A stretch of DNA of 44,323 bases from a virus (Duplodnaviria; Caudoviricetes), in the IMG/VR virus record IMGVR_UViG_3300044796_000650, positions 1 to 44,323 of that record; one strand, 5' to 3'. Numbering within the stretch: the stretch's first letter is position 1; every line of letters starts with the position of its first letter. Under the pieces are notes generated by a model. The model ran no database searches and had not been told where the DNA came from. It worked only from the letters and a program-made list of their open reading frames with translations. Below are positions 19,221-44,323 of the stretch, piece by piece. The position numbers and the translations under genes are program-made.

Positions 19221-21953
19221 TCATTTGACCTTGCGAAGTTGGCTGCCGTGAAACGCTGCCCAGGATTCCGTCTCTCTTCCGTTGAAGTTCTCGTTTTGAA
19301 CAATTCCGTCAAAGCCCTTCATCACCGCTTGCTCCCGGATCGCGTTGCGCACCGGCATCAGAACTTGATGAATCTCCCCTTTTCCGAATTTGTCCGCCGG
19401 GACTTCTATTCCGCTTTTTCTTAGCGCTTCCAAAACCTCCGCTGGATTCACATCCGCGGTTCCCGAAAACTGGCGCAAATCCAGAGGCTTCTTAATGCTT
19501 GCGTAAACCGGAGTCGGCTTCGAGCTGTGCGCGAAGTTCTGCGCATAGGATTCATCTGGCGAAACGAAATTCCATCCATCCCGAAACTGTTCAAATTCGG
19601 AATCGCTACCATGATAGACGACGCCTGTCAGCTTGCTGCCTTTCTGCCACTGTTGGTGTTCTCGGGATAGCTTTTGCTTCGGATGTAAGGCGCGCAGCTC
19701 TCTCGCCGCAGGAGTGTCTTCCGAGTCGAGTTCGTATCTTTTCCACAACGGAGAAGACCGTCCCTGTTGCGCCAGTTGCGAAATTTCCGAATCGTCGAAG
19801 TCCCATTTTTCTCGAAACTCAGATTGCGATGCTGCGGAGATTGTGCCGGGCGTCGCGACTGCTTCACTTGTGTCCGTCCACTTGCCATCCGCATCCCGCG
19901 GCTTGCTCGCATGCTCATCTTCGAGCTTGGCATGATGCACGGCTTCAGGTTCCAGGGCCGCCTTCGCGAGTTCCTTGCTCGCGTCGCCGTGCGCAATCAT
20001 CGCGGCCTTGTGATCCTCGAACGTGCCGCTCTTGTTTGCCACCTTCGTAGCCGCGAGCGCCGCGCGCGACTTGCCTTTCGCTTCCTCGTTCCATGTCGGC
20101 TCCGGTTGCGCGGGAGGCGCGGGATGTCCCGCGTGTTTGGCGATCGTGTCGTGGATGAACTTGGGACTGCCGATGATCTTCGTGTCGCGTCCGCGCGTGT
20201 CCTTGCCCACGAGCATGTGCGAGCCGTGCTCTGGCTTCGGACTTTCACGAAGCTGGAATTTCGCGCCGCGGGCGTTGTGCTCTTTCAGCGTCGTGCGCAG
20301 GGCTTCGTGATCTTGGGAATCATCCCGGTGCGATACGATCTCCTGTGCGCTTCGATGGTCGCCATCCTTAATGAAGACGTGCTCGTGATTGATCGTCACC
20401 CAATGGCCGGCGGCGTCTGCATTCCCTGTGCGCAGTGCATCCTCGACGAGCTGCTGCAATCGCGAGAGCCGGGCCGTGTTCGCCGTGCGCGGTTCGTTCG
20501 CGGGCGGTTCATCCTGCGTGCCATTTGCAGCGCCTTTGACGACCGGCTGCAGCACGTCTTCCTCGTCCGCGTTCTCATCCACCATCGGCACGCCGAGACG
20601 GTCGGCGACGTTCGGGAGGTCCACGCGGCCGCCGCGGTCGGCGATGAAGCCCGCGCTGTCGCGGAGCTGCTGCGCGTCCTCGGTGTCCATGTCCGGCAGG
20701 CCGAACCAGGCGAGCGGCTCGACATCCTCGCCGAAGCAAAAGCGGATCACGGCGCGGTCGATGAACGTACGGCACGCGCTCGCGATGTTCTGGCAGTGCG
20801 CGATCTCCAGCGCCTCGGTCTCATTGATCTGCGCGGTGATGCCGTGCTCGTTGTCCTTGCTGGCGACATTCGCCTGCGCGCCGCCGCGGAACATCACGGT
20901 CATCTTCCCGTCCTGCCGGTCGAGGAAACGCTCGAAGACCTCCACGTTCGCCGTACCTTCCGGGCCGAGCAGCGAGATGGGCGGCTTGTCCGTGGCCTGG
21001 CACTCGTGGAGCGCGATGCCCATGTCGCCGTTGAAGTCCTGCACGATGCGCGTGAGCGCGCGGCCCGCGTCGCTGTCGGCGCGGGCATTCGTCATGCCGA
21101 TCACCTTCTGCTGGCCGTAGCGCTCGTTGTAGATCGTCCAGTCCTGGAAGGTGAGCCGCTTGAAAATGTAGCACCCCGCGGCGGCGAACATCGCGCCTTC
21201 GCCGCTCGTCACCATCCATTCGCCCTGCCAGTCGAGGTCCTCGCCGATTCCGCCGTAGCCGCCATGCCTCAGCAGGCGGAGCGTGCCCGAGGTATTCTCG
21301 AAAAACCACAGCGGGACGTATTCCATCTCCGCCGTCAGCGCGGGCACGGGTGCGCCGCCTTCGACCTCGATCATCTTGCCGGAGGGCTTCCACACGAAGT
21401 GATGCACCGCGTAGCGCGTGGCGTGGGCCATGCCCATCTGCTTGAGAAGCAGGTGCCGGTCGCCGCGGATGTTCTTGTCGAACGCATCCACCGCCGAGAC
21501 GTTGTCGTAGAAATACTGGAGCGCCGCCGCGTGCCGCGCGGCCTCGATGGGATCGGCGTCTTTGCGCTTCTGCACGCCCCACGGCTTGGCCGCGATGGCG
21601 TTCTGGAGCTGCGGCACGACGAAGCTCAGCGTGTCGTCGCGCCGGATCATCGCGTCCCAGAACAGCGCGCCCTGCCACAGGTAGCCGAGGTCGAAGTGGT
21701 CGTGCGCCGCCGCGAGGTTCTCCGGCGTGACCATGCGGAGCGGGTTGAACCGCATCCGCCGCGCCAGCTCGACCGTGGAGGCCGAGAACGCGGAGCCGGT
21801 CTGCGGGACGGGCAGGGCGTTCTGCGCGGCATTGGCCGTGGCGATCGGGCCGGTTAAAGGCCGGGGCTTCCCATTGCGGGGCGGCTGGAGGGCTTTCATC
21901 GCGGCTGCACTCCTTTCCCAATGCCACTGCATACGCGCGGAAAGGCTCTGCAT
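19221..21953 (-). CDS. Portal protein (Mu gp29/DUF935-like) with long C-terminal extension ending in an ADP-ribosyltransferase-like domain
   Basis: Follows terminase; DWTIYNERYG, F.ERFLDRQDGKM portal motifs; C-terminal VYHGS..F..F..PDESYAQNFA..VYASIKKPLD..GFDGIV..ETESWAAF..QLR; start uncertain (21992/21953/21899). Confidence 0.8.
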   Translation of the reverse strand: MQSLSARMQWHWERSAAAMKALQPPRNGKPRPLTGPIATANAAQNALPVPQTGSAFSASTVELARRMRFNPLRMVTPENLAAAHDHFDLGYLWQGALFWDAMIRRDDTLSFVVPQLQNAIAAKPWGVQKRKDADPIEAARHAAALQYFYDNVSAVDAFDKNIRGDRHLLLKQMGMAHATRYAVHHFVWKPSGKMIEVEGGAPVPALTAEMEYVPLWFFENTSGTLRLLRHGGYGGIGEDLDWQGEWMVTSGEGAMFAAAGCYIFKRLTFQDWTIYNERYGQQKVIGMTNARADSDAGRALTRIVQDFNGDMGIALHECQATDKPPISLLGPEGTANVEVFERFLDRQDGKMTVMFRGGAQANVASKDNEHGITAQINETEALEIAHCQNIASACRTFIDRAVIRFCFGEDVEPLAWFGLPDMDTEDAQQLRDSAGFIADRGGRVDLPNVADRLGVPMVDENADEEDVLQPVVKGAANGTQDEPPANEPRTANTARLSRLQQLVEDALRTGNADAAGHWVTINHEHVFIKDGDHRSAQEIVSHRDDSQDHEALRTTLKEHNARGAKFQLRESPKPEHGSHMLVGKDTRGRDTKIIGSPKFIHDTIAKHAGHPAPPAQPEPTWNEEAKGKSRAALAATKVANKSGTFEDHKAAMIAHGDASKELAKAALEPEAVHHAKLEDEHASKPRDADGKWTDTSEAVATPGTISAASQSEFREKWDFDDSEISQLAQQGRSSPLWKRYELDSEDTPAARELRALHPKQKLSREHQQWQKGSKLTGVVYHGSDSEFEQFRDGWNFVSPDESYAQNFAHSSKPTPVYASIKKPLDLRQFSGTADVNPAEVLEALRKSGIEVPADKFGKGEIHQVLMPVRNAIREQAVMKGFDGIVQNENFNGRETESWAAFHGSQLRKVK

Positions 21954-22152
21954 ACCGCGCGGAGCCCCGGATCGCGGGGTCCGAGGGCGCAAAACGCGCT
22001 GGCGGGCGTTCTAGCGGGCGTTCTAGCGGGCTGGAAAACTCGGCCGGGGGCAACTGCAGCGCACTTGACCTTCACCTTGCGGTTACTGGCTGCTGATACA
22101 CCCCCGGCCTCTCGATGTGGTGTTCTGATTCCTGCGATGGAAAGTGGTGAGA

Positions 22153-28676: not shown

Positions 28677-28985
28677 ATGACCAACGCCACGAACCTCATC
28701 CACCGCCTCGCGGAACTCCGCGCGGGCGTGCTCTGCCGCATCCGCCTCAACTGGACGAAAACTGACAAATCGTTCCGTGCATTTTGGAACGCCGCCGATC
28801 ACTGCGAACACGTGAAGCTGCGCGCCTCGCTCGCCGCCATTGATTCCTGCGCGGACGCCGCGGAGGTGCTGCGCGAGGTACGCCATTCGACACGGCGGAT
28901 CTACCGCCGCCTGATCTCCCCCGGCGCGCGGGAGGAACTCACGATCGGCGGGACCGGTGAACGCGCCATGCAGCAAGCCGCCTGA
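28677..28985 (+). CDS. Hypothetical early protein
   Basis: ATG after A/C-rich leader; ORF open from 28581. Confidence 0.55.
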   Translation: MTNATNLIHRLAELRAGVLCRIRLNWTKTDKSFRAFWNAADHCEHVKLRASLAAIDSCADAAEVLREVRHSTRRIYRRLISPGAREELTIGGTGERAMQQAA

Positions 28986-28988
28986 CCC

Positions 28989-29516
28989 GTGCCCGCCTCC
29001 GCCTCCACGCAAATCCCGCCGCAGGTGAAGCAGGGCGATTTCCTCGCGCTGCTGTTCCGCCCGCTGCTCTCGCCGCAGGCGGCGGCATTCCTGCTGGAGT
29101 GCAGCGTGGACCACGTCGTGCGCATGGCGGATGCCAGCGAGGTCGTCGCGTGCAACGTGGCGCTGAAGATCGAGCGCGGCGACGAGGCGGTGGACGAACG
29201 CGCGCCCGAACGGATGATCCGCATCCTGCGCCCGAGCATCGAGCGGCTGGTGATTCCCGCCTACTCGAAGCAGGGCGGCAAGTGCCCCGAGCCCACCTTC
29301 GAGCAGGCGCTCGACAGCGTGCATCACCGCGCCACGTGGACGCGACGCGAGGTCACGCATTTCCTCGACTGCTCGGACGATCACGTGCGCCGCCTCACGG
29401 AGGCGAAGCTGCTCGGAGGCCCGCTCCTCACGCAGACCGGCAGCGGCCGTCTCCAGCACATCGCGCGCGCCTCGCTCGGCGAATTCCTCCGCGACCGCGA
29501 CCTCTCCCAAGCCTGA
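28989..29516 (+). CDS. Tandem excisionase-like HTH protein
   Basis: Two HTH_17-type repeats: LSPQAAAFLLECSVDHVVRM and WTRREVTHFLDCSDDHVRRL. Confidence 0.7.
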   Translation: MPASASTQIPPQVKQGDFLALLFRPLLSPQAAAFLLECSVDHVVRMADASEVVACNVALKIERGDEAVDERAPERMIRILRPSIERLVIPAYSKQGGKCPEPTFEQALDSVHHRATWTRREVTHFLDCSDDHVRRLTEAKLLGGPLLTQTGSGRLQHIARASLGEFLRDRDLSQA

Positions 29517-31199: not shown

Positions 31200-33269
31200 A
31201 TGTCCATGATCCTCACCGTCCCCCACCACGATGTTCCCGAGTTTTCCGCGCTCCCGCTCGACGTGAAGATGGAGATCAAGGCGTGGCTGCGCGAGCTGGC
31301 CGTTGTCGCCCGCGCGTCGAACAAGCGGCAGGCTTTTGCGCGCGCCGCACACGTGCTGCATGCGAGCTGGCAGACGGTCCGGCGGAAGTATCACGCGATG
31401 CGCACCAGCGGCGACTGGCGGTGCCTCATCAATCGCGCGAAGGTGCGCGGCGAGGGCGAGCGCGTGCCGGATCCCATCGTCGAGGAATACGCGCGGCGCG
31501 CGGAGGGCAACCAGCGCAAGAGCCGGCCCGCGCACCGCGATCTGATGCGCGAGTGGCGCCGCGGCGAACTTTCGCACCTGCCCTGGCCGGAGCTGGACGA
31601 TCGCGGCCTACCTCGCGGGTGCAGCTACGACAACCTCATGCGCCGCCTGCGCGCGCGCGGCGGGCGTTCCTTCGAGCTGACCGCGATGCGCGACGGCCTC
31701 GGTGCGGCGCTCGGCGAGTTCGGCCCGAAGGTGCTCACCACGCGCGTCGGCCTGTGGGTGGGCAGCCACTACATTCCGGACGACGTGAAGCGCGACATCA
31801 AGGTGCTCATGCTGCGCGGGCAGGAGGCGTGCATCCAGGAACTCGGCGTGATGGACCTTTTCAGCGGCGACCGCTTCGCCGTGCATCGCCGCCCGCAGTT
31901 CGAGCGCGCGGACGGGACGAAGGACTCGCTGAAGGAACGCGAGATGCGCTTCCTCTTCGCGCACATCTTCCGCAACATCGGCTACTCGCCGCGCGGCACG
32001 GAGATTCCGGCGGAGAAGGGCACGGCGGCGGTGCGCAGGGCGCTCGCGAAATTCTTCCACGACCACAGCGGCGGAAAGATCACCGTGCGCGAGCCGGGCA
32101 TCATCGGCAGGGTGCAGGCCATCGCGGGATACTTTGGCCGCGGCGGCGGCAACCCGCGGCACAAGGCGCGGCTGGAGGCGCATCACAACCTGCTGCACAA
32201 CGAGGCCGCGCATCTGCCCGCACCGACCGGCCACGACCGCAACCCGCCCGAGTGGCTGCACGGCCTCCAGGCGATCACCGGCGACGTGATCAAGGAACTC
32301 GGACGCGACCCGAAGCGCGCGCAGCTCATGATCGCGCCGATGCTCGAGTACTGGCAGGCGTGCTCGCTGCTGCGGGAGATTGACGACCTCATCGCGTGGC
32401 GCACCGACCACGAGTTGGAAGGCTGGATCGAGTGCGGGCACACGCTCGTCGAGTGGCGTCGCGATGTGCTCGGCAACGAATGGCTGTCGCCCGAGCAGTT
32501 CCTCGCGCTGGACGCCGGGCAGCAGCAGATGCTCGTCACAGCCGCTTCGCTCATGCCCGCCCTGCGCCGGGCGCGGAAGCTCGCGCCGCGCGAAGTCTTC
32601 GGCGCGGGCATGAAGGAACTCGTGACGCTGCCGGATGCGGTGATCGCGCTCATGTTCTGCGACCGCGAACTCGGCGACGACCTGCGCCGCCCGAAGTCGC
32701 TGAACGCGGATGGCGACATCGAGATTCAGGATGGCGAGATTGCGCCCGACACGATGACCTTCGAGGGCACGCTGGCCGCGCCGGATGGTGGCAGCTACCG
32801 GCTCGCCGAGCGCACGAAGTATGGCGTGGTGGTGAGCCCATTCGAGGCCGGGGAAAAAACCGTGCTGTGGGTCTACGGGCCCCGCGGCGAATTTCTCGGC
32901 ACCGCCGCACGACGGATGCGCTCGAACCCCCACGACACCGCCGGCATCGAGCGCCAGCTCGGCCGCCGCGCGCACGAGATCAAGACGCTCCTCACGCCGC
33001 TCCAGGAACGCCACGCCGGAGCCGCCGCCGAGATCGAGGCCATCGCGGAGCACAACAGCCAGGTGCGCAAGGGCGGCCCTTCCGCGGAGGAACTGCGCGC
33101 TGCAAAGCGCGAGGAAGTGCGCATCGCCGCGGTGGATGGATCGCTTTCCGATTTCCTTGACGATGAACCGGCCAAGCCGGCGGACGCGCCCGCCGGTCCA
33201 TCCGGCTCGCTGCGCGACTTTCTCGACGACGAACCGGCGCTGCCGGCGGACGCGGAAGCGCAGCCCTGA
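31200..33269 (+). CDS. MuA-like DDE transposase
   Basis: 689 aa; HYIPDDVKRD, VMDLFSG, AEKGTA, GNPRHKARLEAHHN catalytic-region motifs; upstream of MuB-like ATPase. Confidence 0.85.
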   Translation: MSMILTVPHHDVPEFSALPLDVKMEIKAWLRELAVVARASNKRQAFARAAHVLHASWQTVRRKYHAMRTSGDWRCLINRAKVRGEGERVPDPIVEEYARRAEGNQRKSRPAHRDLMREWRRGELSHLPWPELDDRGLPRGCSYDNLMRRLRARGGRSFELTAMRDGLGAALGEFGPKVLTTRVGLWVGSHYIPDDVKRDIKVLMLRGQEACIQELGVMDLFSGDRFAVHRRPQFERADGTKDSLKEREMRFLFAHIFRNIGYSPRGTEIPAEKGTAAVRRALAKFFHDHSGGKITVREPGIIGRVQAIAGYFGRGGGNPRHKARLEAHHNLLHNEAAHLPAPTGHDRNPPEWLHGLQAITGDVIKELGRDPKRAQLMIAPMLEYWQACSLLREIDDLIAWRTDHELEGWIECGHTLVEWRRDVLGNEWLSPEQFLALDAGQQQMLVTAASLMPALRRARKLAPREVFGAGMKELVTLPDAVIALMFCDRELGDDLRRPKSLNADGDIEIQDGEIAPDTMTFEGTLAAPDGGSYRLAERTKYGVVVSPFEAGEKTVLWVYGPRGEFLGTAARRMRSNPHDTAGIERQLGRRAHEIKTLLTPLQERHAGAAAEIEAIAEHNSQVRKGGPSAEELRAAKREEVRIAAVDGSLSDFLDDEPAKPADAPAGPSGSLRDFLDDEPALPADAEAQP

Positions 33270-33302: not shown

Positions 33303-34469
33303 ATGATGCCACCAGCCGCACCCGCACCCACGCCCAAAGCGCCCGTCTCCATTCCCGTCGTGCCCCGCGATGACGAGCAGCTCGACTTCGCCGCGCTCAC
33401 CGGGACGATCACCATCACGCCCGCCAAACTGCGCGAGACCTACGCCGAGCACCTGGTCTCCGGCCTCGTGTCCGAGGATGAACTCGCCACCGTTCAGTGG
33501 CTCCTCACGCACGGCATTGACCTCAAGCTCTCCATCGCCGCGCTGGGCCGCACCTGCGGACTCGGCGAAGGCACGATGAGCAAGCTCGTGAACGGCCTCT
33601 ACGGCTCCGGCTCGCAGAAGGCCGGCACCTTCAAGCCCATCCCCATCACGGGCCTCTGCAAGACGGTCGAAGGCTACCGCGACCTCTACGAGCAGCGGCG
33701 CGCGATCAACAAGGCCGACTTCGTGGAGACGAGCATCTACCAGGAGATGAAGGCCGCGTGCGACACGGCGCTCGCCTACCAGACGATCTACCCCATCTAC
33801 GGCGATTCGCAGCTCGGCAAGACGACGGCGCTGGAGAAAATCCGCGACCGCGACAAATTCGGGCGCACCATCCTCGTGCCAATGCCGGCGATGGGGCACA
33901 TCGGCAAGTTCCTCATCGCGCTGAACAAGGCGCTCCGCGAAAGCACGAAGGCGCGCGGGGACCAGCTCTGGAACAGGCCGATGGAGGTCATCCGCAGTTC
34001 GCACCTGCTCATCATTGATGAAATCCACGAGACGACCGTGTCGCCGGGCCGCGGCGTCGCGCGGGTGAACACGCTCGAATACATCCGCCGCCTGTGGGAC
34101 GCGACGAAGTGCGGCCTCGTGCTGTGCGGAACGAACGTCTTCCGCGACGAGGTGGAGACCGGCACGCACGCCGCACTGCTGGAGCAACTGCGCCGCCGCG
34201 GCCTGCCTCCGCTGCAACTCCCGAGCGTGCTCCCGCAGGGCGACATGGACGCCATCGCGCGCGCCTACGGCCTGCCACCCGCGCCGGACGCCGTCCACGA
34301 GAAGCGCGAGGCGCTCGTGAAGACGACCGGCCTTCGCGCCTACGTGACGTTCCTGAAGATGGCCGCGAAGAAGGCCGACAAGGCGGACCGCAAGATCACC
34401 TGGGGAGACTTCATGTCCGCGCACGACATCACGAAAAAGCAGAGCCTGCCGGCGGGAGGTGCGAAGTGA
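33303..34469 (+). CDS. MuB-like AAA+ transposition ATPase
   Basis: N-terminal HTH; Walker A GDSQLGKT; Walker B LLIIDE; LEYIRRLWD, GLVLCG. Confidence 0.9.
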   Translation: MMPPAAPAPTPKAPVSIPVVPRDDEQLDFAALTGTITITPAKLRETYAEHLVSGLVSEDELATVQWLLTHGIDLKLSIAALGRTCGLGEGTMSKLVNGLYGSGSQKAGTFKPIPITGLCKTVEGYRDLYEQRRAINKADFVETSIYQEMKAACDTALAYQTIYPIYGDSQLGKTTALEKIRDRDKFGRTILVPMPAMGHIGKFLIALNKALRESTKARGDQLWNRPMEVIRSSHLLIIDEIHETTVSPGRGVARVNTLEYIRRLWDATKCGLVLCGTNVFRDEVETGTHAALLEQLRRRGLPPLQLPSVLPQGDMDAIARAYGLPPAPDAVHEKREALVKTTGLRAYVTFLKMAAKKADKADRKITWGDFMSAHDITKKQSLPAGGAK

Positions 34470-35179
34470 ACCGAGTGGAACGAGGTAGCTCGCCGCAGGC
34501 GACCCGCAGGGCAGCGCCGGAGGGCGCTGGCAACGCTGCGACCCGCAACCAGATCGAGATGCCGGACTCGTGGGAGGACTCGCTTGCGCCCGCGAAGTCG
34601 GACAAGCCGCGCTTTGCCCACGCTGCCGCGCTCGCGGTCGCGAAGGAACTGGTGGAGGTGATGCGTCCGCATTGCCGTCGCATCATCGTCGCCGGGTCGC
34701 TGCGGCGGCGGAAGCCGGATGTGGGGGATGTGGAGATTCTTTTCGTGCCGAGCGCCCGGCCCGAGCCGGTGGTGCGCGAGGACATGTTTGCCGAGCCGGA
34801 GTTCCTGCCCGCGACGGATGCGGTGATTGAATCCATGCTCGCGCGCGGGGTGATCGTGAAGCGCCCGAACATCATCGGCGGCACGTCGTGGGGCATGAAG
34901 AACAAGCTCGCGATCCACTGCGCGACCGGCATCCCGGTGGACCTCTTTGCGACGACGGACGCGGCGTGGTGGAACTACCTCGTGTGCCGCACGGGCGGCG
35001 CGGAGTCGAACGTGGCGGTCTGCCTGGCGGCTCAGCGCAAGGGGTGGAAGTGGAACCCGTATGACGAGGGATTCTCTGAGCGCAGCGGCCTCGCGAGGAA
35101 GGTGCATCCCGTGACGAGCGAGCGGGAGGTCTTTGAACTTGTCGGCCTCGAATACCGCGAGCCGTGGGAGCGCTTCTGA
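34466..35179 (+). CDS. Minimal X-family DNA polymerase/nucleotidyltransferase (palm+thumb)
   Basis: AGSLRR..PDVGDVEIL, VDLF, RTG, EREVFELVGLEYREPWER; GTG overlaps MuB stop (ATG 34559 alternative). Confidence 0.85.
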   Translation: MNRVERGSSPQATRRAAPEGAGNAATRNQIEMPDSWEDSLAPAKSDKPRFAHAAALAVAKELVEVMRPHCRRIIVAGSLRRRKPDVGDVEILFVPSARPEPVVREDMFAEPEFLPATDAVIESMLARGVIVKRPNIIGGTSWGMKNKLAIHCATGIPVDLFATTDAAWWNYLVCRTGGAESNVAVCLAAQRKGWKWNPYDEGFSERSGLARKVHPVTSEREVFELVGLEYREPWERF

Positions 35180-35901: not shown

Positions 35902-36143
35902 AAGCGGAAATCGAAGCCTTGCAGCGCGAGCTGCTCGCGGCGGTCGCTGACATCGGCGGCATGGCCACGAATCTCACCGAGGCCCGCGACTGGATGCAGG
36001 ACATGCACGCCGGTGAGGCGAAGCTGAGCCTGGAAGCCGTCTCTGCCGGTGCCGTGGATGCCACGGAACGCCTGCGCACCATCGCGCTGAAGTGCGAGGA
36101 ACTCTGCGCGGGCGCTGCCGCGAAGAAAGGGGCGGGAAAATGA
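35898..36143 (+). CDS. Small helical hypothetical protein
   Basis: GTGA overlap upstream, ATGA overlap downstream. Confidence 0.6.
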   Translation: MKAEIEALQRELLAAVADIGGMATNLTEARDWMQDMHAGEAKLSLEAVSAGAVDATERLRTIALKCEELCAGAAAKKGAGK

Positions 36144-36292
36144 GTGAGGCGACGACATGGCGGTTCTTCCGCGACGGGGAGCCTGCGCACATCGTCGAGG
36201 CCGGGCCGGTGATGCTGCTCACGCTGTGCGGGCTGTCGTTCAACGATTTAGCTGACCCAAGCGGTGGAGGCGTCGGCCAGAAAGCCCAGTGA
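36140..36292 (+). CDS. Small protein running into attC1
   Basis: MSEATTWRFF..H..TLCGLSFN then attC-encoded tail. Confidence 0.55.
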   Translation: MSEATTWRFFRDGEPAHIVEAGPVMLLTLCGLSFNDLADPSGGGVGQKAQ

Positions 36293-36359
36293 TCCACCAA
36301 ACAAACAACAGCGCCAAACTGAAACGCGGGACCGCTTTGGGTCCGGCGACTTGTTAGGC
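36238..36359 (-). other. attC1 recombination site
   Basis: Minus strand GCCTAAC-aagtc-GCCGGACC...GGTCAGC-taaatc-GTTGAAC, 122 bp. Confidence 0.85.
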
Positions 36360-36376
36360 CACAACGAGTAAAACAA

Positions 36377-37429
36377 ATGAAGCAAACCGTGAAATTCATC
36401 CGCGTAATCGGCGGACAAGATGATGGTGACACGCTCAAGGTAGAAAAACCGTGGGAAGTGGACGCGAGCGAAGTGATGCACATTGAGGCCGATGGAGAAC
36501 GATACAAACTCGACCACATCGAAAATGAAACTGCTGTCTTTGTGCATGATGGTTTTGTGGCCGAACGCAGAAGTGAGCCACGGCGGGGACGGAAAATGAT
36601 GAACGTAAAACCAACATTTGAACTGGAAAGCAGCGTCGAGCGCACGGCAATCCCGCCGTTGTGCTCCACTGATTTGTTGGGCGGCAATTTCGTGGACAAA
36701 CTCATTCGTGGCGACTGTCTGGAAGTGATGAAGGCAATGCCCGATGGCAGCGTGGACGCGGTAATAACTGACCCGCCCTACTGCTCCGGCTCTGTGTCCG
36801 AAGCCTCGCGCACGGCAGCGAAAGGCCAAGGGCTGCGGTCGGAGAACATCCAACGCCTCGGATGGTTCGTGGGCGACAACATGGGAACGGCTGGCCTCGT
36901 GTGGCTCATCCGCTCGATGGCAGTGGAATCTCTGCGGCTGCTCAAGGGTAACGGCTCGCTGCTCATCTTCTGCGACTGGCGCATGATACCGAACCTCATC
37001 CCCGCCGTGGAGTCTGCGGGCTTCCGATACCAGAACCTCATCGTGTGGGACAAGACGCACATGGGCCTCGGCAATGGCTTCCGCGCACGCCACGAACTGA
37101 TAATGCACATGACCGCTGGCAGTCCTGCCTACCACGACAAAGGCACAGCGAATGTGATGCAGTGCAAGCGCGTCAGCGCCGATGACCGCGAACACCAAAC
37201 ACAGAAGCCGGTGGAACTAATAGCGCAACTCGTGCGCGTGGTGTGTCCGCCGGGCGGTGTGGTGCTAGACCCATTCGCGGGAAGCTGCACGACCGCGCAA
37301 GCGTGCGCCGAAACGGGACGGCACTACGTCTGCATCGAACGCGATCTCGACCACTGCGAAACCGGACGGCAAAGGCTCACTGCTACCGAGCGCGATCTCT
37401 TGCCGCCCAACGACAAAATCCAGCCATGA
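36377..37429 (+). CDS. Beta-class DNA N6A/N4C methyltransferase (own ATG 36596, cassette B), fused in frame to the small cassette-A ORF from 36377
   Basis: GDCLEVM, VITDPPY, IVWDK, HQTQKPVEL, VLDPFAGS motifs; N-terminal VIGGQDDG small-protein domain. Confidence 0.9.
   Translation: MKQTVKFIRVIGGQDDGDTLKVEKPWEVDASEVMHIEADGERYKLDHIENETAVFVHDGFVAERRSEPRRGRKMMNVKPTFELESSVERTAIPPLCSTDLLGGNFVDKLIRGDCLEVMKAMPDGSVDAVITDPPYCSGSVSEASRTAAKGQGLRSENIQRLGWFVGDNMGTAGLVWLIRSMAVESLRLLKGNGSLLIFCDWRMIPNLIPAVESAGFRYQNLIVWDKTHMGLGNGFRARHELIMHMTAGSPAYHDKGTANVMQCKRVSADDREHQTQKPVELIAQLVRVVCPPGGVVLDPFAGSCTTAQACAETGRHYVCIERDLDHCETGRQRLTATERDLLPPNDKIQP
36560..36682 (-). other. attC2 recombination site
   Basis: Minus strand GCCCAAC-aaatc-AGT[G]GAGC...GCTCACT-tctgc-GTTCGGC, 123 bp. 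Confidence 0.9.
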
Positions 37430-37535
37430 GCGACAAAATAAAATCACGCCTCGAAATGCAGATAGCTGCCGAAATGAAATTCCAAGCCGACAAAGCCGAT
37501 GAGCAAAGCTCATTGGCTGCGATGCCGGGTTCGGC
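37405..37535 (-). other. attC3 recombination site
   Basis: Minus strand GCCGAAC-ccggc-ATC[G]CAGC...GCTGGAT-tttgtc-GTTGGGC, 131 bp. Confidence 0.9.
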
Positions 37536-37788
37536 GTCCGGCCCGTCATACTGCGCGAGCTGTGGCGAGTGGCCGGCCAGTATGACGCCAAATGGTCTGC
37601 GGTGTCATCTATGCGCGTGCCGCGAACACGCCGCCGCCAACCCCGTGCCGCTACCAAGCAACCGAGAAATGCTGAAAGACCTCGCCTCAATCGGAGTTCC
37701 AGGAGCGGCTGACAAACTGCAAAGGACGCCGAACGACCCAAGCTCACCCACAGCCGGGGGCGGCAGTGGTGGAGCGCAACCAAAATAA
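37426..37788 (+). CDS. Cassette C protein, CxxC...CxxC zinc-finger-like
   Basis: ATG inside attC3 overlapping MTase TGA; CASC and CHLC; stop inside attC4. Confidence 0.7.
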   Translation: MSDKIKSRLEMQIAAEMKFQADKADEQSSLAAMPGSASGPSYCASCGEWPASMTPNGLRCHLCACREHAAANPVPLPSNREMLKDLASIGVPGAADKLQRTPNDPSSPTAGGGSGGAQPK

Positions 37789-37855
37789 TCAATGAAGAAA
37801 AAAGCATCGAACGTAAAGAGGACACCGGCTGTTGCGGTGCAGCGCGTTGTTAGCC
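37728..37855 (-). other. attC4 recombination site
   Basis: Minus strand GGCTAAC-aacgc-GCT[G]CACC...GGTGAGC-ttgggtc-GTTCGGC, 128 bp. Confidence 0.88.
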
Positions 37856-38139
37856 AGCCGACCGAGCGCGAGAAACGCCAGTGGTGGGCTGTCGCGGAAG
37901 ATGACGTGCAACTTGTCACGGGATATTCGTGTGCTCCAACTAATCCCGAAATGTGGTGGTGTCCCAAAGTCGGCTCATCAATGAGCGAGAAATACCACCT
38001 ATTCGAGACGGAAGGCGAGGCGATAAACAAGCTCATCTCCGAACTCACCCGCCGAATCGAAGTCGCGGCGGACAACATCGAAGCCCTCAAACGTAGGCTG
38101 GCTAACAGTGTATTGAACAAACTGAGGTCGGATAAATGA
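37792..38139 (+). CDS. Cassette D hypothetical protein
   Basis: ATG inside attC4; reads through attI; stop overlaps intI ATG. Confidence 0.7.
   Translation: MKKKASNVKRTPAVAVQRVVSQPTEREKRQWWAVAEDDVQLVTGYSCAPTNPEMWWCPKVGSSMSEKYHLFETEGEAINKLISELTRRIEVAADNIEALKRRLANSVLNKLRSDK
38100..38118 (-). other. attI site (core G/TTAGCC plus L box GTTCAAT)
   Basis: Minus strand GTTCAAT-acact-GTTAGCC, 17 bp from intI start; TTAGCC complements attC4 R''. Confidence 0.8.
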
Positions 38140-39119
38140 AGACCGGAGTCATTGCCAGATTGCGGGAGGTCGCGAAGGTTCGCATCGGGGATCGGGAGGC
38201 GCTTTGCGATCGGACGGTGGAGACTTATTCGCAGTGGGTGCGAAAGTTTTTCCGCGACACAGGGAAGCCTGCGACGCAGTGGGTGGATGAGGACATCACG
38301 CGATGGATGGCTCGGCTCTCGGACGAGGGCTATGCGTGGAAGTCGCGGTCGCAGGCCCTGTGCGCGATCATCTATGTCTTCAAAAACGTGCTCTCGGTGA
38401 AGGTGGGGGATCTGAATCTGCCGAAGGCTCCGAAGCAACATGCGACGCTGAAGGTGATCCCGACGCGCGAGGAACTGGCGCGCATTTTCTCCGGCCTGCG
38501 CGGGCAGCCGCGGCTGATGGCCGGTGTGATGTATGGCGCGGGCCTTCGCGTGGAGGAGTGTTGCACGCTGCGGGTGAAGGATGCGGACTTCGCGGCGCGG
38601 ACGATCCGCGTGCATGACGGCAAGGGCGGAAAGGATCGGCTCACGCTGCTGCCCGCTGCGCTCGATGCGGCGCTGCGCAGGCAGGTGGCGTGGCGGGCGG
38701 CGCTGCACGATCGCGACCTCGCGGAGGGTGCGGGATTCGTGGAGCTGCCTGGGCGGCTGGCGCTCAAATACAAATCGGCTCCGCGGGAGTTGGGCTGGCA
38801 GTTTCTTTTTCCCTCGGCGGTGATCCGCGGGCAGCGGCGCTGGCACGCGGTGCCGGAGGGAGTGCAGAAGGCGATGCGCGCGGCGGTGAAGGCGGCGGGC
38901 CTGACGAAGCCGGTGACGCCGCACACGCTGCGCCACGCATTTTGCACGCACGCGCTCCAGGCGGGGAATGACATCGCGACGGTGCGGCAGCTCCTCGGGC
39001 ACGCGGATGTGGCGACGACGATGATCTACATGCACGGGGATCGTGCGCGCGGGGTGAGTCCGCTGGATGCGGGGGGCGTGCTGCCTGCGATGCCGGTGCA
39101 GATCGGAGGCCCTCGATGA
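38136..39119 (+). CDS. intI: Integron integrase
   Basis: Tyrosine recombinase R-K-H-R-H-Y intact (GLR, GKGGKDR, HTLRH, LGH, IY) plus IntI-specific VELPGRLALKYKSAPRELGWQFLFPS insertion. Confidence 0.95.
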   Translation: MKTGVIARLREVAKVRIGDREALCDRTVETYSQWVRKFFRDTGKPATQWVDEDITRWMARLSDEGYAWKSRSQALCAIIYVFKNVLSVKVGDLNLPKAPKQHATLKVIPTREELARIFSGLRGQPRLMAGVMYGAGLRVEECCTLRVKDADFAARTIRVHDGKGGKDRLTLLPAALDAALRRQVAWRAALHDRDLAEGAGFVELPGRLALKYKSAPRELGWQFLFPSAVIRGQRRWHAVPEGVQKAMRAAVKAAGLTKPVTPHTLRHAFCTHALQAGNDIATVRQLLGHADVATTMIYMHGDRARGVSPLDAGGVLPAMPVQIGGPR

Positions 39120-39217
39120 AAGCGAACAATCTGCCTGTGGGCGCGCTCCGTCGCGCGGCGAAGAAGGAAGGCTGGGGCCGGGTCAACGGCGGAGATTACT
39201 GCCCGGAGGCCATGTGA
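39116..39217 (+). CDS. 33-aa peptide coupling intI to dnaB
   Basis: ATGA overlap with intI stop and TGATG overlap with dnaB; AKKEGW...DYCP motif. Confidence 0.5.
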   Translation: MKANNLPVGALRRAAKKEGWGRVNGGDYCPEAM

Positions 39218-40632
39218 TGAGCGACCCACTTACAGGATCGAAGCGCGAGAAGCGGAAGGTCTCCTACCCCCCGGATTTTCACCGCGAGACGCCGCATGAT
39301 GCGGATGCGGAGAAGGGCGTGCTGGCGTCGTGCTTGCTTGCGCCGAAGGAGGTGATCGGGCTGGCAGTGGAGTCGGGCGTGGTGCGGGAGGCGTTTTACA
39401 TTCCGGCGCACGGGGAGATTTTTGAGGCGCTGCTGGCGCTGTGGAATGCCGGGAAGCCGGTGGATTTCATCACGCTTGCAGGGCACTTGCGCGATGCGTG
39501 CAGGCTCGACCAGGTGGGCGGTGCGCCCGCGCTGAATGACCTGTTCACCTTTATCGGGACGGCGGCAAACGCGGGCTGGTATGTCGAGATCGTGCTGGAG
39601 AAGTGGCTGCGGCGGCGCGTGATCGCGGTGTGCTGCGAGCACGCGGCGCGCGGCTACGAGGACGACGAGACGGCGCGGCTGATTGACGATGTGGAGCGCG
39701 CGATTTTCGAGATTTCCCAGCAGCGCGCGCACGGCAAGTCGCGGCGGCGCTCGGCGAAGGAGCTGGCAATCGCGGCCATCGGCACGATCGAAAAGATCTA
39801 CGCGAGTGGCGGAAAAATCACGGGTATGGAGACGGGCTTCCGCGAACTGGATCAGATGACGGACGGCCTGCACGGCTCGGAGATGATCGTGATCGCGGCG
39901 CGGCCCTCGATGGGAAAGACGGCGTTCGCGATGAACATCGCGGAGCATGTGTGCATGACGGGCAATGTGCCCGTGGCGGTTTTTTCTCTGGAGATGAGCG
40001 ACGAGCAGCTCATGCAGCGGATGCTGTGCAGCGCGGCTCGCGTGAACATCAAGAGCCTGCGGAACGGCTTCCTGGGCGAGCGGGATTTTCCCGCGCTCAC
40101 TGCGGCGTCCGGCAGGCTCGCGGCGGCCCCGCTTTTCATAGATGATGAGGGGACAATCTCGATCATGGACCTTCGCGCTCGGGCGCGTCGGCTGAAGGCG
40201 CAGCACGGCATCGGGCTCATCGTGATTGACTACCTGCAACTGCTGCGGAGCACTTCGCGCAAGGCGGCGGACAACCGGCAGATCGAGATTTCGGAAATCA
40301 GTGCGGGTATCAAGGGTCTCGCGAAGGAGCTGCGCATCCCGATCGTTGTGCTCGCACAGCTCAACCGGCAGGTGGAGCAGCGCGGAGGCGGCAGGCCGCG
40401 GCTGAGCGACCTGCGCGAGAGCGGGAGCATCGAGCAGGATGCCGATGTGGTGGGGCTGCTGGTGCGCGAGGAATACTACGCCGAGGGCGAGGAGGCGAAG
40501 GCGGAGGCCGCGGGCAAGGCGACCCTCATCATCGCCAAACAGCGCAACGGCCCCGTGGGCGACGTGCCGCTGACTTTCATCAAGGAATACACGCGCTTTG
40601 AGGACCGGGCGCGGGAGGCCGCTCCATGCTGA
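39217..40632 (+). CDS. dnaB: Replicative DNA helicase
   Basis: AEKGVL, AARPSMGKT, FSLEM, IVIDYLQL, QLNR, PRLSDLRESGSIEQDAD, IIAKQRNGP. Confidence 0.96.
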   Translation: MSDPLTGSKREKRKVSYPPDFHRETPHDADAEKGVLASCLLAPKEVIGLAVESGVVREAFYIPAHGEIFEALLALWNAGKPVDFITLAGHLRDACRLDQVGGAPALNDLFTFIGTAANAGWYVEIVLEKWLRRRVIAVCCEHAARGYEDDETARLIDDVERAIFEISQQRAHGKSRRRSAKELAIAAIGTIEKIYASGGKITGMETGFRELDQMTDGLHGSEMIVIAARPSMGKTAFAMNIAEHVCMTGNVPVAVFSLEMSDEQLMQRMLCSAARVNIKSLRNGFLGERDFPALTAASGRLAAAPLFIDDEGTISIMDLRARARRLKAQHGIGLIVIDYLQLLRSTSRKAADNRQIEISEISAGIKGLAKELRIPIVVLAQLNRQVEQRGGGRPRLSDLRESGSIEQDADVVGLLVREEYYAEGEEAKAEAAGKATLIIAKQRNGPVGDVPLTFIKEYTRFEDRAREAAPC

Positions 40633-41603: not shown

Positions 41604-41839
41604 GTGTAGAAAACCGCACTTTCAGCGAAAAGCAGTGCTTTTTCGTTGAAAACGACCGTTTTCCATGCGGATGCCACCCATTCCCAAACGGAGGCCATCG
41701 CTTCTCACACTGCGCGGAGTCCAGTTCATCCTGCGCATCCTGCCAATCCTGTCCCCAAAGTCCCCGGAGCTTGGTGCCAGCGCGCAATCCTGCCTGCGGG
41801 CGGCGGGGCCGGGCTTTGGACAGGGGGTTCCAGATTGGC

Positions 41840-42179: not shown

Positions 42180-43811
42180 TTACGCCCGTGCCGAACGTTC
42201 GCGACGCCGCCTGCGCCACGCGAGGAACAGGAGCAGGCACAGGCCGAGGTGGACGGCGAGAAACAGGACCAGCGGACCAAATGATCCGGCGTCGCCTTTC
42301 CCCAGTTGATTGATCCACTGGATGGGCTGCCACGGTGCGCTCAGCGCGGACAATGCCACGATGTATTGCGCGGTGTCGGAGTAGCGGTTGGCGATCGAGA
42401 TGAGGACAAGGCTGGTGAACAGCGGGACGAAGCCGGCGAGGAAGACGGTCACCCACGTCGCGCGGCGTCCGGCGGTCTCGATGAGGAAATGGAAAAGCGC
42501 ACCCACGACGAGAATGGTGCCGGTGAACACGGCCCACCCCGGCGGGGGAAATCCGGCGCCCTCGAATGCGGGCGGCGTGAGCAGGTGCCGCACGACGATC
42601 GCCCATGCCAAACCCGAAAGCCCGGCGGCAATCCACGCGAAAGGCGCGGCGGTGGCCCCGTCGGAGCACCACGGAATGCGGGACTGCGCGAATTTCTTCT
42701 TCCTGCGAAAGGCGATCATCTGCGTGTCCTCCTTCGGGGTGATGCAGGAAATCACGGGCAACAGCAGGAGCAGGCTGATGACGCCGTAGAGGACGCCGAG
42801 GGCGCGCGCTTCGTAACGCCCGGTGAGGCTGTAAACTTCGGGCGAAAATATTCCGCGGCTTTTTAACACGTTGGTGATGACGCTGCCGCGCCCGAGCAGC
42901 GGGAGCACGTTGCCGAGGAGGATGACCTGAATCCAGATCAGGAAGCCGACCGCGTAGCACTTGCCGAGCAGGTGCGCCTGTTCATCCCGCCAGCGGCGCA
43001 CGAGGATGATGATGAACGTCAGGATCAGCGAGCCCTGCACGATCAGCGAAAACGCGAGGTGCGACACATTCAGCCCGAAGAAAAGCACGCTGGGGCTCGA
43101 TATGCTTTGCGGAACGTTGCCCCACATGCCGCGCCATTGCGGGGTGAGGTCGAGGAAGTTCGCCATGATCACCGGGCGAATCGTGAGATGGGAAAAGATG
43201 ATGAAGCCGAAGTTGGCGAGATTCGGCAGGACAAAATTCAGGATTATCACGAACCCGAGCGAAATCACCCCGGCACGCCAGCGGGACTTGATGATCAGGC
43301 CCGTGATGAGCGCGAGCAGGTGGTAGAGGATCGCGGAACTGAAGAAGACGAGATACACCGGACCCCACGCCTTCAGCGGGATTTTCCCGATGAGAATCGA
43401 AAGCGCGCTGAAGATCGCGGTGACGGCAAAGGAGACGTATTGCCGTGCGGGAAGCCCGAAAAGATAGCCGAGCACTTTCGCCAGCGGCGAAAGCGGTGTG
43501 AGCCGCTGATACTCGATCATCCCCTCCTCCGCCTCCTGGAGAATCCCCGAGCCGACGGCGCCCGTGCCGAGGAACATCACGAAGACCGCCTGCAGGATGA
43601 GCAGCGGAAGAAACGCCGCGCGCGCGGCATCCGCCTCGCTGAGATTCCCGCGGTAGCGCAGCGGCAGGTAGGAAATCGTGGCGATGAAACCGGCGAGGAC
43701 CAGCGCGACCACGATCGTGACGCCAAGCCACACGGGCCGCAACCGTGAGCGCCAGTACCGGCGGAGAATCGGGTTGCCGGGAAGGTTTGCGGCGGAAGGA
43801 GGCTCGCTCAT
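42180..43811 (-). CDS. ABC transporter permease-like membrane protein (host)
   Basis: Multi-TM; NPILRRYWRSRLR start and EAEEGMIEYQRLTPLS..KVLGYLFG ABC-2-type motif; coupled to ATPase. Confidence 0.8.
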   Translation of the reverse strand: MSEPPSAANLPGNPILRRYWRSRLRPVWLGVTIVVALVLAGFIATISYLPLRYRGNLSEADAARAAFLPLLILQAVFVMFLGTGAVGSGILQEAEEGMIEYQRLTPLSPLAKVLGYLFGLPARQYVSFAVTAIFSALSILIGKIPLKAWGPVYLVFFSSAILYHLLALITGLIIKSRWRAGVISLGFVIILNFVLPNLANFGFIIFSHLTIRPVIMANFLDLTPQWRGMWGNVPQSISSPSVLFFGLNVSHLAFSLIVQGSLILTFIIILVRRWRDEQAHLLGKCYAVGFLIWIQVILLGNVLPLLGRGSVITNVLKSRGIFSPEVYSLTGRYEARALGVLYGVISLLLLLPVISCITPKEDTQMIAFRRKKKFAQSRIPWCSDGATAAPFAWIAAGLSGLAWAIVVRHLLTPPAFEGAGFPPPGWAVFTGTILVVGALFHFLIETAGRRATWVTVFLAGFVPLFTSLVLISIANRYSDTAQYIVALSALSAPWQPIQWINQLGKGDAGSFGPLVLFLAVHLGLCLLLFLAWRRRRRERSARA

Positions 43812-44323
43812 TGTCCGGCCTCCTGTGAGACTTGGATCAGGATTTCCTCGAAGCTCGCCTGACGTTCCTCGAAGCGGCGCACGGCGATTCCCTGCTGCAC
43901 GAGGCCCGTCAGCAAGGCCGCCTGTTCGCGCTCGTCGCCCGCAAGATCAAAGCGGAGTTGCAGCTTTTCCCATCGCAGCGCGGCGACGCCGGGCAGGCCC
44001 GTGAGAAAAGACGCCGCCCGCCCGACATGCACTTCCTCCAGCACGGTGATCTCGATCACGCGCGTGCCGCCGCCGAGCTTCCGGCGCACCTCCTCGGCGG
44101 TGCCGGAAATGACCAGCTTTCCCTTTACGAGAATGCCGAGGCTCGTGCACATCTCGGCCAGTTCGCTGAGGATGTGCGAGCTGGCGATGATCGTCGTGCC
44201 GTCGCGGGCGAGGGAGCGCAGCGTCTGCCGCAGCGCAATGCGCGACATCGGGTCCATGCCGCTCGCCGGCTCGTCGAGAATCATCACGCGCGGGCGGTGA
44301 ATCAGCGTCTTCGCGAGCACGAG
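43808..44323 (-). CDS. ABC transporter ATP-binding protein (5' truncated by window)
   Basis: ILDEPASGMDP (Walker B/D-loop), SSHILSEL (H-loop). Confidence 0.9.
   Translation of the reverse strand, partial: LVLAKTLIHRPRVMILDEPASGMDPMSRIALRQTLRSLARDGTTIIASSHILSELAEMCTSLGILVKGKLVISGTAEEVRRKLGGGTRVIEITVLEEVHVGRAASFLTGLPGVAALRWEKLQLRFDLAGDEREQAALLTGLVQQGIAVRRFEERQASFEEILIQVSQEAGQ

Follow-up and report, generated by a model that had tools for sequence, protein, structure and literature searches.

How can gene cassettes that lie backwards in an integron, within the operon of a phage, be terminated and started whichever neighbors they meet? The question is raised by a 44-kb virus record, IMGVR_UViG_3300044796_000650, whose whole length of 44,323 nucleotides is called the window here. 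The window carries a true integron, composed of an IntI integrase, an attI site, four attC sites, and cassettes that occur elsewhere beside different neighbors. The answer that we consider probable is that this integron is intact, that its genes run backwards through attC sites of the host type, and that they mostly draw their final codons and stop codon from the site they run into, in the frame that reads the core AAC as Asn. The layout has likely been selected for cassette interchange, and translation likely restarts at about half of the joints.

The integrase gene intI (38136–39119, plus strand) encodes an intact protein of 327 residues that scores 270.7 bits against TIGR02249 (cut-off 265). 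The residues that we take to be catalytic, R146, H263, R266, H289, and Y298, are all present, and the enzyme is presumably active. The attI site (38100–38135, minus strand) contains an R core, GGCTAAC, at 38100–38106 and an L box at 38112–38118, and its core AAC lies only 32 nt from the intI start codon. The site is conserved beside intI in related loci. An AAC-AG motif precedes the intI start by about 30–36 nt in most of 25 loci, and the homology of cassette D ends at attI. Because intI adjoins the array, the array is not a cluster of attC sites lacking integron-integrases (CALIN).

The attC sites were located with a detector of our own, which uses two cores, L boxes with an extra base, and an inner stem in place of a covariance model. 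The four sites score 19–20; six shuffled windows gave about 0.3 matches each at a score of at least 16 and none at 18 or above. A general repeat search of the window did not reveal the attC sites, and plain minimum-energy folding recovered their full hairpins only in part. Two isolated matches outside the array, at 28956–29060 and 41608–41664 (scores 16.0 and 18.5), are probably false or hairpins.

The strand of an attC site can be assigned from its extrahelical base, a rule given in the accessible part of PMC5027507. The extra base puts the top strand of all four sites on the minus strand, so that the sites face away from intI as usual and the genes run backwards on the bottom (plus) strand. 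The methylase gene and the genes of cassettes A and D all lie on the bottom strand, and the canonical layout of top-strand genes served by the Pc promoter is not seen. This inversion of the genes relative to the attC sites is absent from an earlier note on the same DNA. In integrons with an inverted integrase, intI is colinear with the attC top strand. The window differs, as its intI lies on the plus strand and the attC top strand on the minus strand; it is the cassette genes that are inverted and not the integrase. The same orientation prevails in related viral arrays, where the longest open reading frame (ORF) is on the bottom strand in 62 of 87 cassettes, compared with 21 of 106 in cellular arrays. 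The bottom-strand extrahelical base is C in sites of the window type, versus G in model sites. Among cellular sites whose genes have the canonical orientation, C is again the most frequent base (99 of 159), as it is in sites from genomes of the host class (18 of 26).

The earlier note had claimed that every att site doubles as a translational coupler, with a stop in the AAC frame and an adjacent start. Re-reading the plus strand locates the AAC-frame tail and stop at all five cores. Upstream of the array, an ORF of 50 residues (36140–36292, plus strand; no Pfam or PHROG match) shares its ATGA start with the previous gene and enters attC1 (36238–36359; score 19.5; crossover inferred between A36243 and C36244) in the AAC frame. 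Its tail, NDLADPSGGGVGQKAQ, ends at TGA 36290–36292 within a GTGA. At attC2 (36560–36682; score 20), the AAC frame reads NAEVSHGGDGK and ends at TGA 36597–36599, within an ATGA whose ATG starts gene B. Gene B (36596–37429, plus strand) encodes an N6/N4 DNA methyltransferase of 277 residues (PF01555, E 7.5e-33; phrog_67) and ends with NDKIQP in attC3 (37405–37535; score 19), where TGA 37427–37429 lies within an ATGA (37426–37429) that joins the stop of B to the start of C. Gene C (37426–37788, plus strand; 120 residues, no assigned function, no Pfam or PHROG match) ends with NDPSSPTAGGGSGGAQPK in attC4 (37728–37855; score 19.25) at TAA 37786–37788, and the ATG of gene D follows at 37792. Gene D (37792–38139, plus strand; 115 residues, no assigned function, 14 homologues) crosses attI and ends with NSVLNKLRSDK at TGA 38137–38139, which overlaps the intI ATG at 38136. 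As had also been claimed, B, C, and D each have an ATG inside their own attC. The chain continues beyond the array, where intI is linked to the gene of the DnaB helicase (39217–40632, plus strand; TIGR00665 above cut-off) by an ORF of 33 residues (39116–39217, plus strand) that overlaps the stop of intI and the start of dnaB through GATGA at 39116 and TGATG at 39215–39219.

Genes thus take their last codons and stop from the neighboring site in the AAC frame at four of the five joints. The assertion that all five sites follow the rule holds in part: the stop is coupled directly to the next gene at attC3, attC4, and attI, whereas attC1 is at best a relay and attC2 is broken. At attC1, the overlapping GTG opens an ORF of only 22 codons (36289–36357, plus strand), which ends at TAG 36355–36357 in the far core; the ATG of gene A lies 22 nt after the first base of this TAG. 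The ORF may act as a relay towards gene A. Similar short ORFs of 12–29 residues are present in L028, L034, L049, and L054; each opens at the (A/G)TGA, reads through the far arm, and closes within the far core or just beyond it, a short way ahead of the cassette gene. These too are possible relays.

The generality of the pattern was assessed on 89 distinct sites chained upstream of intI in 30 loci, namely the window (4 sites), 23 IMG/VR loci, and 6 metagenome loci chosen by an IntI identity of at least 52% and presumed to be phage. The IntI loci were drawn from viral, genome, and metagenome collections. Duplicate contigs (L001/L017, L002/L012, L013/L016/L025, L056, L186, and L191) and loci without a detected site were left out, and L043 and L045 were kept although they do not follow the rule. 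The controls are 159 cellular sites from 48 loci, including an IMG/VR locus with a canonical array (L068), a subset of 36 sites from the Planctomycetes-Verrucomicrobia-Chlamydiae (PVC) group, and 26 host-class sites from 15 of 59 loci, in genomes of the class of G001. Sites were read on the bottom strand and genes were taken as the longest ORFs. The loop of each site was shuffled 500 times with the arms fixed. A restart is a start within −8 to +14 of the stop whose ORF runs at least 30 codons past the site.

The viral genes are locked to one frame. Of the 61 that cross a core, 56 are read through it in the AAC frame and 5 in another frame, while cellular crossings split 16/16/11. Of the 89 viral sites, 61 receive an ORF of at least 60 codons in the AAC frame (2 and 7 in the +1 and −1 frames), as opposed to 20 of 159 cellular, 4 of 36 PVC, and 4 of 26 host-class sites. 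An AAC-frame stop lies inside 81 of the 89 sites, and in 42 of 159 cellular, 10 of 36 PVC, and 10 of 26 host-class sites of the same arm family; the shuffles averaged 50.6 and never exceeded 62. The stop has the form (A/G)TGA in 44 viral sites (shuffle mean 12.3, maximum 21) and in 10 cellular, 2 PVC, and 2 host-class sites. A restart opening a long ORF follows in 57 of 89 viral sites, versus 9 of 159, 4 of 36, and 1 of 26 in the three control sets. Strict coupling to the main downstream ORF is found at 47 of 89 viral and 6 of 159 cellular sites; in 25 of these 47 viral cases, the start is located exactly at −1.

The contrast between viral and cellular sites persists when sites are matched for length. 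It is also seen per locus, with stops in 28 of 30 viral versus 15 of 48 cellular loci and restarts in 19 of 30 versus 4 of 48. The AAC-frame pattern occurs in two distant, well-supported IntI groups (42 of 45 and 28 of 29 sites), as grouped by a quick tree only, and the stops are placed at 19 different offsets, from +6 to +66. Two viral arrays, L048:2423–6978 and L049:2498–7649, contain 10 and 12 detected sites, have an IntI 35–38% identical to that of the window, and obey the frame rule.

The attI sites share the same frame. In all 25 loci examined, an AAC-frame stop lies before the intI start or overlaps it; in 12 of them the stop falls within −4 to +14, and one or two of the 25 attI calls are misplaced. 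An ORF of at least 45 codons enters attI in the AAC frame in 17 of the 25 loci, and another frame is longer in none. The comparison with chromosomal attC sites, which the earlier note had suggested as a check, therefore reveals an enrichment of stops and starts and not the equal frequencies that would speak against the rule. Two of its broader statements hold less completely. Cassette genes were said to have no stop of their own, which is true at most sites; the upstream genes at the 89 sites comprise 56 AAC-frame crossings (3 of which read through), 5 crossings in other frames, 9 ends at a core TAA, 16 earlier stops, and 3 ambiguous cases, so that 25 of 89 stop before the core or at the core TAA. 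Coupling was said to persist in any cassette order; it is common, at 47 of 89 attC sites by the strict measure (57 by the loose one) and at 12 of 25 attI sites, but it is not universal, and gene A is a counter-example.

The dependence of C-terminal tails on the neighbor, another claim of the note, is seen directly in relatives of cassette D. The eight members of its 90% cluster all run to LKRRLAN and then continue into seven different tails. In the wider family, Asn is followed by an unrelated tail in 10 of 15 members, and 5 lack the Asn. Between 37831 and C38106, a contig of run X4 shows 5 differences to the DNA of D; beyond this point it enters an attC-like arm where the window has attI. In addition, the methylase cassettes L262 and L263, which are 92% identical, diverge at AAC on both sides. 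Breaks of homology at the plus-strand AAC are expected if the plus strand is the bottom strand. The D relatives and L262/L263 thus provide cassettes with different neighbors, as befits an integron.

An all-against-all blastn search returned few cassette pairs. L262 and L263 have a common left boundary, and the matches of L036/L049 and L051/L054 run on for 2 and 12 nt beyond the crossover. The divergence between B of the window and L262–L264 is too great to place the match ends. A search of viral contigs for cassette D gave no confirmed locus. The left boundary of D is less clean, since its N terminus, encoded by the attC loop, varies among members, suggesting that attC loops change or swap faster than arms. 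In the 61 crossing genes, the tail after Asn measures 1–21 residues, with a median of 9. The note had predicted tails of the form PN-x(5–20); the length fits 48 of the 61, but Pro precedes Asn in only 24.

A mechanism can be proposed for this layout. The overlapping genes form a rightward operon from about 30.4 to 41.3 kb that contains the array, intI, and dnaB, and its far-upstream promoter would replace Pc and also drive intI. A search for sigma-70-like promoters found 1 site versus 0.8 expected. In the empty platform, a phage gene would run into attI, stop there, and hand over to intI. A cassette in this orientation would consist of C, its own attC, a gene, and RYYYAA; it would therefore open inside the last codon of the previous gene and close without a stop. 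Each insertion would cut the last codon of the upstream gene, so that the newcomer has to supply a stop in the same frame. The newcomer would also need to start its own gene, and this gene to reach attI in the AAC frame or to stop first. The attI site, holding an AAC-frame stop, would fix the common frame that an incoming attC must match. The variable loop of attC would then have evolved an AAC-frame stop, frequently in the form (A/G)TGA or followed within a few bases by an ATG. This scheme would account for a single shared frame, for the alternatives seen, an own stop or a core TAA, and for failures by crossing in another frame, which would yield fusions. Ribosomes on both arms would keep the mRNA hairpin open. 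In class 1 arrays, the expression of downstream cassettes is reportedly governed by the translation of those upstream (accessible part of PMC11511950); this would be one more reason for ribosomes to be retained on the mRNA.

A number of observations weigh against the scheme. Gene A (gene body 36377–36565, plus strand; 63 residues, no assigned function), starting at the ATG at 36377, crosses attC2 as GCC GAA CGC, one base off the AAC frame, and reads on in frame into methylase B to form a single ORF of 350 residues (36377–37429). Three homologues of A among 7 matches (P0135–P0137; 62–74 residues, 42–63% identity) confirm this frame, and the NAEVSHGGDGK tail consequently belongs to no real gene. 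A similar case is P0147, a protein of 233 residues in which an unrelated upstream gene is naturally fused to cassette D through an attC. No excision or reshuffling joint of the window array was found in the contigs of four runs, although contigs drop rare variants. Strict coupling extends to only 47 of 89 attC and 12 of 25 attI sites, 13 of the 44 (A/G)TGA starts open only short ORFs, and a Shine-Dalgarno-like 4-mer precedes only 7 of the 44. Native operon junctions likewise use (A/G)TGA, so the overlap alone is ordinary phage style. Stops are also frequent in the other two frames (53 and 43 of 89), and the mRNA hairpins of the sites are not unusually stable (z −0.07 to −1.9). Finally, the sites share ancestry, the detector is our own, genes were equated with the longest ORFs, and the choice of windows and thresholds followed a first look at the data.

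The fusion of A to B has been considered from several sides. Reading gene A in the AAC frame was rejected, as it leaves only 27 codons before the core whereas the other frame has homologues. A word-index search for gene A gave no match. An assembly error in the T run before attC2 is not supported either: the sole spanning contig is identical, possibly being the window's own source, and the RNA run has no coverage there. Most likely, the attC2 core once read GCCTAAC and ended A at 62 residues, like P0135, and the TAA has since changed to GAA. The 92%-identical methylase cassettes L262 and L263 differ by the same T/G at core position 4. This position toggles between T, giving a TAA stop, and G, giving read-in, in near-identical cassettes (L262:890–930, L263:3687–3727; window 36560–36566). 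L051 and L054 carry homologous genes, one ending by AAC-frame read-in and the other at a core TAA.

The strongest competitor, in our judgment unlikely, is that the frame lock is an insurance of termination only: it would end stop-less genes quickly and prevent fusion, while nearby ATGs would arise from the A-rich loop and initiate independently. Stops are indeed supplied at far more sites (81 of 89) than show strict coupling (47 of 89). In roughly half of the attI sites, the frame already closes after NS, some 30 nt ahead of the intI start codon, and the 8 nt preceding (A/G)TGA are richer in A than the sites overall (0.35 vs. 0.27). Against this competitor, (A/G)TGA overlaps are twice as frequent as the shuffle maximum (44 vs. 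21), 25 of 47 coupled starts fall exactly at −1, and the far arm is bridged by short ORFs in sites whose gene starts outside them. Because stops are supplied nearly universally and coupling is partial, termination is nevertheless the firmer function of the frame lock and is well supported, and translational coupling by ribosome re-initiation would be added to it.

It is distinctly improbable that the pattern is a by-product of descent and genome compaction, with one ancestral set of phage attC sites happening to have this frame and no selection for interchangeability. The sites are not independent, the quick tree is compatible with a single origin of the viral label, and (A/G)TGA is the general style of the operon. 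Common descent fits poorly with stops at 19 offsets within variable loops, with the recurrence of the pattern in two IntI groups only about 35% identical to each other's query, with host sites that have the same arms and lack the pattern, and with the different neighbors met by cassette D. Hardly credible at all is an array that is an inactive relic or is misoriented, recombining at the far core like ordinary cassettes or not at all, for although no reshuffling joint appears in the contigs, gene A is fused, and the bottom-strand extrahelical base is C, the IntI is intact, the same C prevails in canonically oriented cellular sites, and homology breaks at the plus-strand AAC.

Profile scans of the window identify a Mu portal, a terminase, and a TniB/AAA transposition ATPase, characterizing it as a Mu-like phage. 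The window phage shares with Mu-like transposable phages the Mu portal (PF06074), the transposition ATPase (phrog_296), and an early operon of small overlapping genes, but the variable part of its early operon is an IntI-type cassette array. The array has a G+C content of 57%, compared with 66–67% in the flanking DNA. The host is likely a verrucomicrobium, because L102, a contig of a Chthoniobacter metagenome-assembled genome, encodes an IntI 65% identical to that of the window beside the same attI, and because the attC arms are common to host-class genomes: the right arm of attC1 resembles a host-class chromosomal site in L302, and the arms of attC4 resemble one in L300. INPHARED contains no cultured phage with a close IntI (7 records, 34–40% identity). 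Contigs of the RNA-library run X2 cover 27 of 30 bins, the listed pieces being identical, and were not used as evidence of transcription.

Several features lie elsewhere in the window. The Mu-type portal (19221–21992, minus strand) is extended to 923 residues and has a weak C-terminal ART-PolyVal match (E 5.7e-7), just under the Pfam cut-off. An early-operon gene (34466–35179, plus strand) encodes a PolX-like DNA polymerase beta thumb domain (PF14791). An acidic (S)LxDFLDDEPA motif at the C terminus of a transposase-like protein of 689 residues is encoded by two 51-nt repeats (33138–33254; 66 nt apart). At the right end (42180–44320, minus strand), genes resemble a host ABC transporter permease and ATPase, as judged from translations only; such genes are expected in host DNA flanking a Mu-like phage.

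Parts of this system have precedents. Integrons and CALINs in phage genomes were described by Qi et al. 2023 (PMC9892861), whose accessible text reports IntI and attC in phage DNA and DNA methyltransferase cassettes, as in the window. Their complete integrons are captured bacterial arrays, whereas the window has a phage-associated IntI group abutting attI, inverted genes, and overlapping sites. Applied to their TJE1 CALIN, our detector places two sites on the strand that also carries the annotated genes, the canonical layout. It did not recover the sites of P12002L, and the scan says nothing either way on that phage. A term search did not find the word "translation" in the main text of PMC9892861. 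For class 1 integrons, ORF-11 of attI1 and short ORFs in attC have been reported (Hanau-Bercot 2002, Jacquier 2009, via the accessible part of PMC8876359). As that source describes it, ORF-11 reads across the recombination point, is closed by a stop that the inserted cassette brings, and aids the next gene by termination–reinitiation, while the short ORFs inside attC relieve the hairpin. A frame that crosses in this way and ends near the next start is found at three of the five joints here and at 47 of the 89 attC sites. The difference is that ORF-11 encodes a leader peptide, lies on the top strand, and is served by Pc, whereas in the window cassette genes themselves cross on the bottom strand, at most sites, in a chain towards intI. 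Host-class and other PVC chromosomal integrons share the attC arm family and the extrahelical C, but host-class genes are on the top strand (12 of 13 cassettes) and a restart next to the AAC-frame stop is found at 1 of 26 sites. Virus Rctr41k (KX853513; L274:6641–10101) has seven attC-like matches with mixed strand calls downstream of an integron-integrase-like gene annotated xerD. Literature searches, with subscription papers mostly outside their scope, found no description of inverted, frame-locked cassettes; the supplement of PMC9892861, which lies beyond that coverage, may contain such arrays. Phage integrons, ORF-11 coupling, and short ORFs in attC are thus already published, and the inverted frame-locked layout is a real and general feature and a new form of integron.

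In the accessible part of PMC5027507, integrons are presented as bacterial systems whose cassettes must face away from Pc, and the inverted insertion of a cassette as a dead end. In these phages, the same integrase family and attC sites of the host type serve in reverse, inside a lytic operon, with a frame convention that makes unrelated cassettes compatible. The convention would amount to a natural standard by which genes can be joined through recombination within coding sequence. It explains phage proteins with constant cores and unrelated N-x tails, and it leads one to expect such cassettes to be mis-assigned by gene callers and integron finders. The origin of cassettes is named as an open question in the accessible part of PMC8618304. 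As a tentative extension, which we consider doubtful, this phage dialect of the integron may also give birth to cassettes: IntI might place an attC that carries a stop and a start in the AAC frame at an AAC close to the 3' end of a native operon gene, leaving that gene unharmed, and two such insertions would mobilize the gene between them without reverse transcription. If so, relatives of B and D that lack an attC or an Asn tail (L265–L267, L269–L271; P0127, P0129–P0131) would be un-captured native forms, and shuffling would in addition vary protein tails and make fusions such as A–B and P0147, as a second layer of diversity. The layout thereby offers a testable route to the question of cassette genesis.

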